A DNA stretch of 64,000 nucleotides from an uncultured bacterium (GTDB taxonomy: Bacteria > Krumholzibacteriota > Krumholzibacteriia > LZORAL124-64-63), in contig CAVSGO010000007.1 of assembly GCA_963727525.1 (NCBI GenBank), positions 896,001 to 960,000 on the forward strand. The letters run 5' to 3'. A program made the translations under genes and the position numbers. The notes under the pieces were generated by a model that searched no databases, was not told the DNA's origin, and saw nothing but the letters and a program-made list of their open reading frames with translations. Every line of letters starts with the position of its first letter. Position 1 is the first letter of the stretch. Below are positions 7,728 to 9,994 of this stretch, piece after piece.

Positions 7728-8417
7728 CTAGCGGAACAGACTCTTCACGTTGCTCCAGGTCGCCGGATCGCTGGCCGTGGGATCGTTCGGAGGAACGATC
7801 TTGAGGTCGAAGACCCGGTCCCAGCCATCGGGCACGGTGACGCCCGGGCCGGAGTCGGGATCGGCGACGTTGAGCGCGTTGACGATCCAGTTGGCCAGTT
7901 CGTACTCCGCCGCGGTCAGCTCGCCGAGGCGGGTGCCGCCGACCATGTCGCACATGCCGCTGCCGAAGCCGCTGTACAGGCCGTCGGTGTTGGTGTCGAG
8001 CATGGTGATGCCGAACCCGTCCTGCAGATTCGCCGAAAGGACCATCGTCCCGTCGGTGAATGTCGCCGGGTTGGCCCAGTCGGCCGCGGTCCCATTATCG
8101 GTGAAGATCTCGATCATGCCGCCATCGAGCGTCACGTTGCGCACCATCGCCGACGGGTTCGACACCGACGAGATGGTCCAGGCGCTGATGTGTACGGTGT
8201 GCTGGTAGTTGTCGAAATCGAACGGGATCGGCGTGGGGAAGCCGCCAGCGTCGGTGAGGATCCCGTAGACGTCGACGGTGGCTCCGACGGTGTCGACCGC
8301 CGGCGTGTACTTCGCATATCCGAACGAGACGAACTCGGCGCCAGCCATGGCCGTTCCGGTTCCGAAAGCCAGGACGAGCAAGGCGGCGGCGAGTACCAGC
8401 GAAACCCTTGCTTTCAT
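7728..8417 (-). CDS. Secreted hypothetical protein with C-terminal TWSNVKSLFR motif
   Basis: Sec signal peptide (MKARVSLVLAAALLVLAFGTGTAMA), acidic Gly/Thr/Asp-rich body, RBS GAGGAGGGAG. Confidence 0.85.
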   Translation of the reverse strand: MKARVSLVLAAALLVLAFGTGTAMAGAEFVSFGYAKYTPAVDTVGATVDVYGILTDAGGFPTPIPFDFDNYQHTVHISAWTISSVSNPSAMVRNVTLDGGMIEIFTDNGTAADWANPATFTDGTMVLSANLQDGFGITMLDTNTDGLYSGFGSGMCDMVGGTRLGELTAAEYELANWIVNALNVADPDSGPGVTVPDGWDRVFDLKIVPPNDPTASDPATWSNVKSLFR

Positions 8418-8451
8418 GTTTTACTCCCTCCTCGGCCCTGAGGGCCAGGAT

Positions 8452-9144
8452 CTAGCGGAACAGCGCCTTCACATCGCCCCAGGCCGACGGTTCGACCGAG
8501 ATCGACGGATCGAAGTTGACGTGCCCGACGGTCTCGAGATCGTAACCCTCGGGGATCTGCGCGTTGGTCGCGTCCACGGTGCCCGCGAAGGTGTAACCGT
8601 CACTCGGCACCTCGATGAGATCCGCACCACCGGTCCACGTGACCGTGCCCTCGAAGTTCCCGGTGTGGGTCGCGGGGTTGAACGTCATCGAGAAGCTCGT
8701 GAACTCGCCGCTGAGCACCACGGTGCCATCCATGAAGGTGGACTGCATGGTCGCGTTCGGCGGATCGATTCCGTAGTCGGCCGCCGTGAAGCCGCCGTCG
8801 GCGAACAGGTCGCTGGCGAATGCCAGCGTGCCGCCGGTGTACGAGATCTGCAGGATCCCGCCGCCGATATCGATCTGACCCGTCGACACGAGATCACTCA
8901 TGAAGAAGGTGAACTCGTTGTCGTCGAGCGTCCACGGCAGGGCAGGATTGATGTTCTGGATGAAGCCGCCGCCAGCGAGCACATCGCCCACATCGCTGGG
9001 CGGGAAGCCGATGGCGCCCGGTGTGTTGTCGGACTCGTAGAGCAGTCCGGTGAAATCGAGCATCGTGTCGGGCTGCGCGAAGGCCGCACCCGCCGCCATC
9101 ACGAGAACCAGTACGATCCCGGACATCGTGAGCAGATTCTTCAT
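8452..9144 (-). CDS. Secreted hypothetical protein with C-terminal AWGDVKALFR motif (paralog of 7728-8417)
   Basis: Signal peptide ending AFA; shares TAAD, TFxDGTxVLS and PxGxD blocks and the C-terminal motif with its neighbour; RBS GAGGGAGGGAG. Confidence 0.85.
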   Translation of the reverse strand: MKNLLTMSGIVLVLVMAAGAAFAQPDTMLDFTGLLYESDNTPGAIGFPPSDVGDVLAGGGFIQNINPALPWTLDDNEFTFFMSDLVSTGQIDIGGGILQISYTGGTLAFASDLFADGGFTAADYGIDPPNATMQSTFMDGTVVLSGEFTSFSMTFNPATHTGNFEGTVTWTGGADLIEVPSDGYTFAGTVDATNAQIPEGYDLETVGHVNFDPSISVEPSAWGDVKALFR

Positions 9145-9217
9145 CACTCCCTCCCTCACTGAATCAGCATGGTGACAGGAAAATCGCAGTAGCGCTTGCG
9201 AATCGAGATAGAGCTCA

Positions 9218-9249
9218 ATGGTGGCAGACCTCCTTGCTTGACCGTCAAG
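9218..9249 (-). promoter_or_regulatory. Candidate sigma70-type promoter with an overlapping dyad upstream of the secreted-protein pair
   Basis: Minus strand TTGACG-19 bp-CACCAT with TGn extended -10; perfect dyad CTTGAC-N-GTCAAG at 9237-9249. Confidence 0.3.
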
Positions 9250-9410
9250 GACTTCTCCCCTCAGCGGCCGCAGTGTAGCATCAACAGGATGAATTTTCCA
9301 CCGATTATGCGGCCGAGATGAGGAAATATTCGTTAATCCGCGGCATCCGACGCCGGACCTGGACACCAAATCAAAAATAATTTTGCGTATTCGCTGAAAT
9401 CTGGACGGTC

Positions 9411-9487
9411 TGGTCGGGGCGACTGGATTCGAACCAGCGACCCCTTGCCCCCCATGCAAGTGCGCTACCGGACTGCGCCACGCCCCG
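9411..9487 (-). tRNA. tRNA-Pro(GGG)
   Basis: Anticodon arm CTTGC-AT-GGG-GG-GCAAG; GGTTCGAATCC; CCA end; follows a MerR-family gene as is common. Confidence 0.96.
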
Positions 9488-9577
9488 ACCAAGACGATGC
9501 CGGCGGGACCGCCGGCAGAGGGATTCGTTTGCGACGAGCAAAGATAACCGCGTCGTCCGGCGTCCACAAGGCCAATC

Positions 9578-9994
9578 TCAGGCCTTCGCGCGCTGAGAGG
9601 TCGCTCGTTCGTTCTCGGGCGGGCCCAGTTCGCGCACGAGGTCGCGGACCTCGGCGAGTTCCTTGCGAACGAATGCGAGCTGCTCGTGGATCTCCATCTC
9701 GTTGAACGCCATCGAGAGCTGCTTCGGAGCCGCCGTATCCGCTGTCTGCCGGCGTTGCTGCTGCAGGTGCTTCCGGGCACCGGCGATCTTGAAGCCCTGT
9801 TCGTACAGCAGGCGCGCGATGGTCTGGATCTGGTCGATGTCGGGCTGGCGATAGCGCCGGCTGCCGGCGCGGCCCTTGCGCGGCCGCAGGGAGGGGAACT
9901 CGGTCTCCCAGTAGCGCAGCACGTGCGGCTTGATCCCCGTCAGCTCGCTGACTTCGCTGATCGTGTAGTAGAGCTTGCTGGGCAACTCGGCCAC
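9578..9994 (-). CDS. MerR-family transcriptional regulator
   Basis: [10 protein letters not shown]...[15 protein letters not shown]...RRY...[12 protein letters not shown]. Confidence 0.92.

Follow-up and report, generated by a model that had tools for sequence, protein, structure and literature searches.

Small C-terminal sorting signals have been defined as a motif followed by a transmembrane helix and then by an Arg cluster, according to one source (10.1101/2023.06.07.544157). PEP-CTERM, the exosortase signal, and other tripartite signals (LPXTG/sortase, GlyGly-CTERM, MYXO-CTERM) are of this kind. Type IX secretion systems (T9SS) read a larger address, the type A C-terminal domain (CTD; TIGR04183/PF18962), which is a folded beta-sandwich of about 70-100 residues. 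The short CTDs of Prevotella intermedia, the shortest described, are three-stranded, have 40-55 residues and retain motifs B, D and E, and the last 22 residues of one short CTD were absolutely required for secretion of a reporter (PMC11969387). Here we describe a 16-residue C-terminal tail that ends two tandem genes, P0001 and P0002, in a window of 64,000 nucleotides (the whole stretch of DNA analysed, positions 896,001 to 960,000 of contig CAVSGO010000007.1, assembly GCA_963727525.1) from an uncultured bacterium of the Krumholzibacteriota. With neither a transmembrane segment nor a folded domain, this tail fits neither the tripartite sortase-type design nor the T9SS CTD.

The tail is portable among unrelated bodies, stands strictly at the C-terminus, is excluded from the predicted fold, and exchanges position with the T9SS CTD and PEP-CTERM on homologous bodies. 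We consider it quite likely that it is a portable sorting or anchoring tag. Our favoured reading in full is that of a portable tag for surface or export sorting whose reader is part of, or coupled to, the T9SS, and we assign it a probability of roughly 0.45. Several large, environmentally abundant uncultured phyla tag about 1-2% of their proteins (here ~80 of roughly 3,300 genes), and the destination of the tag is needed to read their secretomes, which include surface enzymes, binding modules and beta-helix proteins.

A portable tail on unrelated exported proteins

P0001 and P0002 lie in tandem on the minus strand with a gap of 34 bases. As read from the open reading frame (ORF) and its translation, P0001 (7728..8417, stop codon 7728-7730) encodes a secreted protein of 229 amino acids, and P0002 (8452..9144, stop codon 8452-8454, with an alternative GTG start at 9159, 15 bases upstream) encodes a secreted paralogue of 230 amino acids. 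The two proteins share 28% identity across 181 columns (BLASTP, E = 7e-8) and are therefore real but distant paralogues. Both N-termini show a basic start, a hydrophobic core and an A-x-A site (A-M-A in P0001). The signal peptides, judged by eye and with a hydrophobic-window heuristic and no dedicated predictor, comprise residues 1-25 of P0001 (MKARVSLVLAAALLVLAFGTGTAMA before G; 8343..8417, minus strand) and residues 1-23 of P0002 (MKNLLTMSGIVLVLVMAAGAAFA before Q; 9076..9144, minus strand). Flush with the stop codon, P0001 ends in ...PTASDPATWSNVKSLFR (also given as ...DPATWSNVKSLFR; last residues TWSNVKSLFR) and P0002 in ...SISVEPSAWGDVKALFR (also given as ...EPSAWGDVKALFR; last residues AWGDVKALFR). 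This bears out the preliminary description, which had reported two tandem secreted paralogues of ~230 residues sharing such a tail. Delimited from the sequence and the logo given below, the tag itself comprises residues 214-229 of P0001 (TASDPATWSNVKSLFR; 7731..7778, minus strand) and residues 215-230 of P0002 (ISVEPSAWGDVKALFR; 8455..8502, minus strand). The copy in P0001 is slightly divergent, with T and D replacing the consensus V and E.

Searched against Pfam and NCBIfam at E <= 1, P0001 and P0002 matched no family except for a chance OmpX match on the signal peptide. The tag ended all of the 27 homologues of P0002 found at 34-54% identity. In the alignment of this family, which is free of the bias of a regular expression, W222 and K226 were invariant at a mean column identity of 44%.

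The source assembly (4.66 Mb, 8 contigs, 96.7% complete) was scanned in six frames for W-x-x-[VILM]-K-x-x-[FYW] in 40,231 stop-to-stop frames of at least 60 amino acids, and an occurrence was counted as terminal when it lay 0-3 residues from the stop. The motif occurred 100 times in total and 80 times terminally, and four permuted expressions occurred 12-19 times each, with 0, 0, 0 and 3 terminal. Among the 20 non-terminal occurrences, three were the same tail with five extra residues and two were apparent tags after which the open frame ran on for 42 and 52 residues. After a start codon, a signal-peptide-like start was recognized by a crude heuristic in 74 of the 80 terminal frames, a few of the 74 being evident fragments. 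In a rough gene call of 3,271 genes, 70 were tagged when up to five trailing residues were allowed. By an equally crude test, signal-like starts were found in 56/70 tagged genes versus 1,036/3,201 others, and most of the 14 misses had over-long starts.

After the last 18 or more residues had been trimmed, from ten before the W, BLAST at E <= 1e-5 grouped the 80 bodies into 55 clusters, of which the largest had 12, 8 and 5 members. Pfam and NCBIfam searches covered 52 of the 80 tagged proteins. Left aside were nine that were fragments or lacked a signal peptide and 17 redundant members from the five largest clusters; P0001 and P0002 were searched on their own. Pfam matches to 18 different families were found in 21 of the 52 representatives and none in 31. 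These families included Beta_helix, GH28, NosD, DUF642, CHRD, PPC, LTD, Calx-beta, CBM_4_9, MAM, DUF4397, NIDO, DUF7450, Temptin_C and RskA_C, together with weak matches to Spond_N, GBD_T9SS_assoc and Copper-bind. NCBIfam named a 'choice-of-anchor C' domain (TIGR04362, 116.8 bits against a cut-off of 120) in one tagged body and a spondin domain in another. In none of the 54 tagged proteins scanned did a Pfam or NCBIfam model span the tail. Since P0001 and P0002 are paralogues, the shared tail might be thought to be ordinary conservation of the last structural element of a single family. That idea deserves virtually no credence, being refuted by the 80 terminal frames, the 55 unrelated clusters with their many Pfam domains, and the position of the tail outside the predicted fold.

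The consensus of the tag, V-[AP]-[TVA]-E-[PAS]-x-[TS]-W-[GS]-x-[VI]-K-[AS]-L-[FY]-[R>E,Q,N]-stop, spans 16 residues and was derived from 74 tails aligned on the W, with the six frames without a signal-like start excluded and W and K fixed by the search expression. Upstream of the W, the logo has V at -7 (55/74), [A/P], [T/V/A], E at -4 (47/74), [P/A/S], any residue and [T/S]. From the W onward it reads W, G (48) or S (25), any residue, V (51), I (15) or L (8), K, [A/S], L (56), and F (43) or Y (28). R closes 34 of the tails; the rest end in E, Q, N or D or run on for a few residues more. Hydrophobic runs in the logo reach no more than about 4 residues, and it contains neither a transmembrane-like stretch nor a basic cluster. 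The Ser codons after the W were TCN in 13 tails and AGY in 13, with variable third positions; the tag is conserved at the amino-acid level, that is, by selection on the peptide. R or K was the last residue in 29/48 tails with WG and in 6/25 with WS (Fisher p = 0.006), and the tag may come in these two flavours. We found no description of the tail in the literature searched, with subscription journals and supplements outside its scope.

In the AlphaFold2 models, the tail is placed outside both folds as a linker and a short helix of low confidence. For P0001 (alignment of 39 rows), the mean predicted local distance difference test (pLDDT) score was 89.5. Its beta-rich body covers residues 29-208, with pLDDT 92-98 through residue 210, and is followed by two final blocks at 61 and then 66 and a low-confidence helix at 221-227. 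For P0002 (28 rows, mean pLDDT 78), strands run through residue 211, the linker at about 211-220 scores 58, and residues 221-230 score about 64, with a low-confidence helix at 222-228. Both proteins thus pass from a body at pLDDT 90-98 through ~12 residues at 58-61 to a helix at 64-66, and it was from this sharp drop in confidence and the secondary-structure string, without coordinates, that the tail was judged not to be packed. The short amphipathic C-terminal helix expected by the preliminary description agrees with these models. That description had proposed the tail as a candidate undescribed sorting signal, to be given up if the motif were confined to this paralogue family, were packed into the domain core or already belonged to a described sorting domain. 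None of the three was found, and the proposal is supported.

The body has no clear relative among solved structures. A Foldseek search against the PDB gave no match at E <= 0.001. VIA-align placed 2q03 first (Z 9.1, 119 residues aligned, root-mean-square deviation 3.6), and below it many small beta-barrels at Z 7-8.7, the background level according to the tool. P0001 and P0002 would be described as small, single-domain, Sec-exported proteins with beta-rich bodies, possibly a small closed barrel.

Short terminal amphipathic helices are known from the anchor of Escherichia coli PBP5 (DacA) and from the membrane-targeting sequence of MinD, in which they are family-specific and loosely conserved. 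The tag resembles them in that it, too, would be a short amphipathic helix at the terminus, carried on a flexible linker and not spanning the membrane. It could therefore be asked whether the tail needs a reader at all, or simply lies in the plane of a membrane leaflet or in lipopolysaccharide and tethers periplasmic or surface proteins there. The free 7-residue helix modelled after a flexible linker in both proteins would suit such an anchor, as would a helical-wheel reading of the logo, in which W, V, L and F share a face flanked by K and R. The variable terminal residue and the toleration of 0-5 extra residues point the same way, and they also argue against recognition of a free carboxyl end. 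However, generic membrane helices are not normally conserved residue for residue over 55 unrelated families and several phyla, whereas in the tag W and K do not vary and G/S, V/I and L hardly do. A reader-free anchor also gives the conserved, non-helical N-terminal half with its V-x-x-E-P no role. Moreover, a nine-residue helix with four hydrophobic side chains would be a weak anchor, and both the body domains and the CTD-bearing paralogues are of extracellular type. We regard this explanation as distinctly unlikely.

The beta-signal of outer-membrane proteins, which is read by BAM, is likewise a C-terminal aromatic and hydrophobic pattern, and the tag shares with it such a pattern near the end of an exported protein. 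However, the tagged bodies are soluble, the aromatic residue is usually penultimate, and the hydrophobic spacing suits a helix rather than a strand.

Exchange of the tag with known sorting signals

Within the source genome, 20 tagged bodies matched CTD proteins (44 rows), and in 14 of these rows, from 5 queries, the match stops at the tag on one side and at the start of the CTD on the other. For example, residues 22-402 of a tagged beta-helix protein align to residues 6-415 of a paralogue whose CTD begins at 418. A word-indexed search returned no longer homologues of the P0002 body, but an exhaustive profile search of a wide library did, with 490 relatives in all at E <= 0.001. A tag-like tail ended 98 of the 148 homologues that were newly fetched among the best 150 of the 490, and others were F/L-for-W variants or fragments. 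Fifteen long homologues (346-761 amino acids) matched the profile only to about position 204. Thirteen of them end in FlgD_ig/Por_Secre_tail, one weakly (E = 4e-4), and two had no Pfam match. Another homologue, P0266 (233 amino acids), ends in PEP-CTERM (TIGR02595, 30.3 bits, curated cut-off 16), and P0210 has a similar tail of V-P-E-P, a hydrophobic stretch and R-R-R-R. The V-x-x-E-P start of the tag aligns exactly with the V-P-E-P of the PEP-CTERM homologue. The suggestion that homologues of the body might carry PEP-CTERM or T9SS tails therefore proved correct on both counts, with 13 long forms bearing a T9SS CTD and one bearing PEP-CTERM at the curated threshold. One and the same body is thus found with three alternative ends (tag, T9SS CTD and PEP-CTERM), a pattern that has led to the recognition of sorting signals in the past.

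The general attributes of a portable C-terminal sorting signal, partly as given in 10.1101/2023.06.07.544157, are a position near the C-terminus, many copies per genome and a conserved motif. All three are found in the tag, as are unrelated bodies, a criterion added in this analysis. Like PEP-CTERM and the tripartite signals, the tag is short and C-terminal, occurs many times per genome on unrelated exported bodies, follows a linker, and begins with its signature motif, V-x-x-E-P; a 'choice-of-anchor' domain is among its bearers. Unlike PEP-CTERM, it lacks a transmembrane segment and an Arg cluster (having a single R, or E/Q/N), conserves only E-P with a V three before the E, and has no TIGR02595 match. 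The absence of a transmembrane helix and a basic cluster from the logo sets it apart from LPXTG/sortase and the other tripartite signals in the same manner.

The tag also resembles the T9SS type A CTD, in that both are strictly C-terminal, reside on Sec-exported cargo with unrelated bodies, and occur in dozens of copies per genome. As far as tested, the tag was found only in genomes with T9SS hallmarks, and it occupies the position of the CTD in paralogues and homologues. Furthermore, it ends in L-hydrophobic-basic as the CTDs of the source genome do, and it has an invariant Lys; a conserved, functionally important Lys is described for type A CTDs (PMC10994853). It differs in having 16 residues instead of 40-100, a linker and a helix instead of a beta-sandwich, and no motifs B, D and E. 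Neither P0001, P0002 nor the 52 other tagged proteins matched TIGR04183, PF18962 or PF13860. The two signals also differ in their cargo, the tag being found on small single-domain proteins and the CTD on large ones, and many T9SS genomes lack the tag.

A strictly C-terminal element exposed on a flexible linker could also be what a quality-control factor or a C-terminal protease of the periplasm recognizes, that is, a degron or processing signal and not an address. However, it is hard to see why ~80 unrelated secreted proteins would have in common a degron conserved across phyla, and the tail exchanges position with two bona fide sorting signals. In addition, no protease gene was associated with tagged genes in the neighbourhoods of the source genome and of 20 further loci. 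We consider a degron very improbable.

Distribution of the tag across genomes

The tag and its stop codon were turned into an IUPAC DNA probe, WSNTGGDSNNNNNTNAARDSNHTNTWYNNNTRR, with the pattern read backwards as a control. In the source genome the probe had 49 sites and the control 0. In the Krumholzibacteriota sample, 148 of 151 genomes had probe matches (114/117 of high quality), with 0-49 per genome and five control matches overall. PorV homologues of 66-85% identity are labelled Krumholzibacteria in their sources. A stricter probe, applied to one genome per species of GTDB, matched at least 133 stretches, and the translated ends of the 80 listed were all tags. Among the matches listed, many were labelled Eisenbacteria, others Krumholzibacteriia/ota, Latescibacterota and 'Fibrobacteraceae' or 'Fibrobacter sp.' metagenome-assembled genomes (MAGs), and one each Gemmatimonadota, Ignavibacteria, Coatesbacteria and Limnocylindria.

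Over whole genomes, the probe matched 19 times in the 'Fibrobacter sp.' MAG G151, 17 times in the 'Fibrobacteraceae' MAG G152, 26 times in the 'Gemmatimonadota' MAG G153, 12 times in the Eisenbacteria genome G155, 23 times in G157, 16 times in the 'Limnocylindria' MAG G364, 3 times in the Coatesbacteria genome G365, 24 times in the Latescibacterota genome G366 and 7 times in G367; the Ignavibacteria MAG G154 had 1 match. The GTDB phylum of G153 had 11-39 matches in 9/9 genomes. In the Eisenbacteria-type phylum, that of G155, matches were found in 52 of 61 genomes (51/60 without the unpublished genome G382, which has 15 matches), with 0-40 per genome and 0 for the control. It should be noted that the labels 'Fibrobacteraceae', 'Fibrobacter sp.', 'Limnocylindria' and 'Gemmatimonadota' of these public MAGs look unreliable (loci L094, L108-L111, L133, L114). 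G151 and G152 have orthologues 63-67% identical to a source-genome protein, and the 'Limnocylindria' MAG holds T9SS CTDs besides its 16 tags.

The phylum of G154 shows a different pattern. Probe matches were present in 77 of its 201 genomes (exactly one in 73, two in four) and absent from 124, with two control matches in total. Nearly all of the matches listed encode T-W-G-[K/R]-I-K-A-L-F-[K/R]-stop. In the seven loci fetched (L229-L235, e.g., L230:8080-8499, plus strand), the bearer is a conserved secreted protein of 133-162 amino acids, and in 5/6 of the longer loci its gene lies directly 3' of rex. Its body has no relative in the source genome. This single-copy bearer, in a lineage that has no other use of the tag, may be the original client of the reader. 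Together with the specific DNA probe and the contrast between tag-free and tag-rich genomes within a phylum, the single-copy bearer of this Ignavibacteria-type lineage makes the question directly testable.

Type IX secretion and candidate readers

We infer sorting by the tag, together with its destination, any cleavage and its reader, and the mechanism would run as follows. The signal peptide would bring the protein into the periplasm, where the tag would hang on a flexible linker off the folded body. Over its last nine residues the tag would form a short helix of amphipathic character, one face carrying W, V, L and F and the rim K and R. Some component of the envelope would recognize this handle and deliver the protein to the cell surface or to the outside, a task that the ~85-residue T9SS CTD performs for the large multidomain proteins encoded in the same genome. 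The reader would most likely be part of, or coupled to, the T9SS apparatus, and processing may take place at the conserved V-x-x-E-P stretch. That the tag works through the T9SS at all appears to us a little short of an even chance. As a tentative formulation, the tail could represent a minimal signal of a third class, for export over the outer membrane or attachment at the surface, that uncultured phyla with a T9SS (Krumholzibacteriota, Eisenbacteria, Latescibacterota and their allies) use on small proteins of a single domain and that a yet unrecognised carrier or receptor reads. If that is true, either a peptide five times shorter than all CTDs known can address the T9SS, or there is a further route across or onto the outer membrane. 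Identification of the reader would either change what counts as the minimal T9SS signal or bring to light a new pathway of the envelope, and a tag this short would be an attractive handle for secretion or display.

The source genome encodes SprA (2,272 amino acids) and PorU (436.5 bits, cut-off 420), the latter followed by a PorV paralogue, L188. At least 150 of 209 candidates matched TIGR04183, and a CTD hidden Markov model built from the source genome recognized 221 CTD proteins, in 202 of which the domain closes the protein. The 221 included none of the 70 tagged gene calls, and the median length was 763 amino acids for CTD proteins and 281 for tagged gene calls. Tagged genes adjoined a CTD gene in 21/70 cases versus 8.2 expected (maximum 17 in 1000 random draws). 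SprA or CTDs were present in every tag-rich genome tested. SprA was found in 149/151 Krumholzibacteriota genomes, the two misses being 86% and 88% complete and one of them having 39 probe matches, and in 20/22 selected Eisenbacteria-type genomes.

Several findings weigh against a reader in or coupled to the T9SS. The adjacency of tagged and CTD genes may only mirror the clustering of secretome genes. The T9SS is universal in these phyla, and its co-occurrence with the tag therefore carries little weight. SprA was also present in 9/9 of the Eisenbacteria-type genomes without a probe match, so that the T9SS is not sufficient for tags. In the phylum of G154, most genomes had no match or just one, and G154, the sole genome of that sample tested for the T9SS, has SprA and 53 CTDs. 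A search for SprA_N in the tag-rich MAGs G364 and G366, both of them fragmented, found none, although both hold CTDs. Furthermore, a comparison by hhalign of the tag profile with the source-genome CTD profile gave a probability of 0.13%, and the tag is only about one third as long as the shortest CTDs described (PMC11969387). Finally, no machinery gene recurs beside tagged genes.

Some of these findings would fit a separate sorting or anchoring machinery that reads the tag independently of the T9SS and merely coexists with it. This could be a receptor in the outer membrane, a carrier or a peptidase dedicated to the tag. Tag and CTD are unrelated in sequence, and SprA occurs where the probe found no match. 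The location of V-x-x-E-P at the V-P-E-P position of the PEP-CTERM homologue hints at a cleavage motif of its own, and WG tails tend to end in another residue than WS tails. However, no untagged family recurs near tagged genes, either in the source genome or in 20 loci of a distant phylum, except for weakly enriched Ser/Thr kinases. Exosortase (PF09721) was not found in the source genome, which is 96.7% complete, and a control search found PF09721 in 1/14 genomes; PEP-CTERM proteins, sought by regular expression, numbered none there. All tag-rich genomes tested also carry T9SS hallmarks. An independent machinery is unlikely in our view, and we favour a reader that is part of, or coupled to, the T9SS.

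The gene neighbourhoods and the T9SS components were searched for such a reader. Within four genes on either side of tagged genes in the source genome, only CTD-linked proteins, an insertion sequence (IS) transposase, Ser/Thr kinases, sensor kinases and ABC ATPases recurred. In 20 tag-cluster loci of G153, G157, G158 and G160 (L209-L228), only kinases, beta-helix proteins and ABC ATPases recurred, with no machinery candidate. Ser/Thr kinase genes lay near tagged genes in 8/32 cases in the source genome, and six were found in 5/20 loci of the distant phylum, which is a weak enrichment. These may be pairs of a secreted ligand and a kinase.

A PorV2-like protein, L193, is encoded at C7:967255-969965, ~7-10 kb past the end of the window and beside a sigma-54-dependent activator. 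Its best NCBIfam match (154.6 bits against a cut-off of 325) is the model 'putative type IX sorting system protein PorV2', NF052325, and no paper on PorV2 was found in the literature searched. At E <= 1e-30, a match to L193 was present in 55/77 probe-positive versus 28/124 probe-negative genomes of the G154 phylum, a comparison confounded by kinship and threshold. L193 was rejected as a specific reader of the tag, an orthologue (36-44% identity) being present in 22/22 Eisenbacteria-type genomes, including all 9 without a probe match. The PorP-like protein L194 was also rejected, since with this query it was strong only in the tag-poor G393 and G403 and missing from 5/6 tag-rich genomes.

The PorV/PorQ family of the source genome comprises eight intact paralogues and one broken copy at C3:388701-389624. 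Intact loci lie, e.g., at C7:670070-674016, C7:789330-794519, C7:354689-362919 and C2:51835-62333. Most of these paralogues are directly downstream of a very large CTD gene (983-2,819 amino acids), suggesting dedicated cargo-shuttle pairs. A GWxTD-domain protein (TIGR04514) is encoded at C7:674168-675808, directly downstream of the best-scoring paralogue, L187. A complex prediction of L187 (residues 21-310) with mature P0002 (26-230) gave scores of 0.39, 0.13 and 0.00, which speak neither for nor against L187; the PorV adjacent to PorU is L188, not L187.

P0002 and P0001 are part of a same-strand housekeeping run of der, plsY, gpsA, a MerR-type regulator, tRNA-Pro, P0002, P0001, a family-2 glycosyltransferase, surE and pcm. 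Since the neighbours are housekeeping genes, the locus is uninformative about the function of the two proteins. The tRNA-Pro (anticodon GGG; window positions 9411-9487, minus strand) lies between P0002 and the MerR-type gene, and a long ORF at 8452-9780 in the mechanical ORF list is spurious because of it. Elsewhere in the genome, a 375-amino-acid transposase-like family (beginning MPGPVFMNTKTLTSCP...) has 33 copies, e.g., C4:80839-81966 and C7:1144052-1145161, and was found ten times within four genes of a tagged gene. An identical gene pair, a 290-amino-acid CTD protein followed by a 389-amino-acid tagged beta-helix protein, occurs near contig ends at C7:4998-7094 and C8:263359-265455, and represents either a recent duplication or an assembly repeat.

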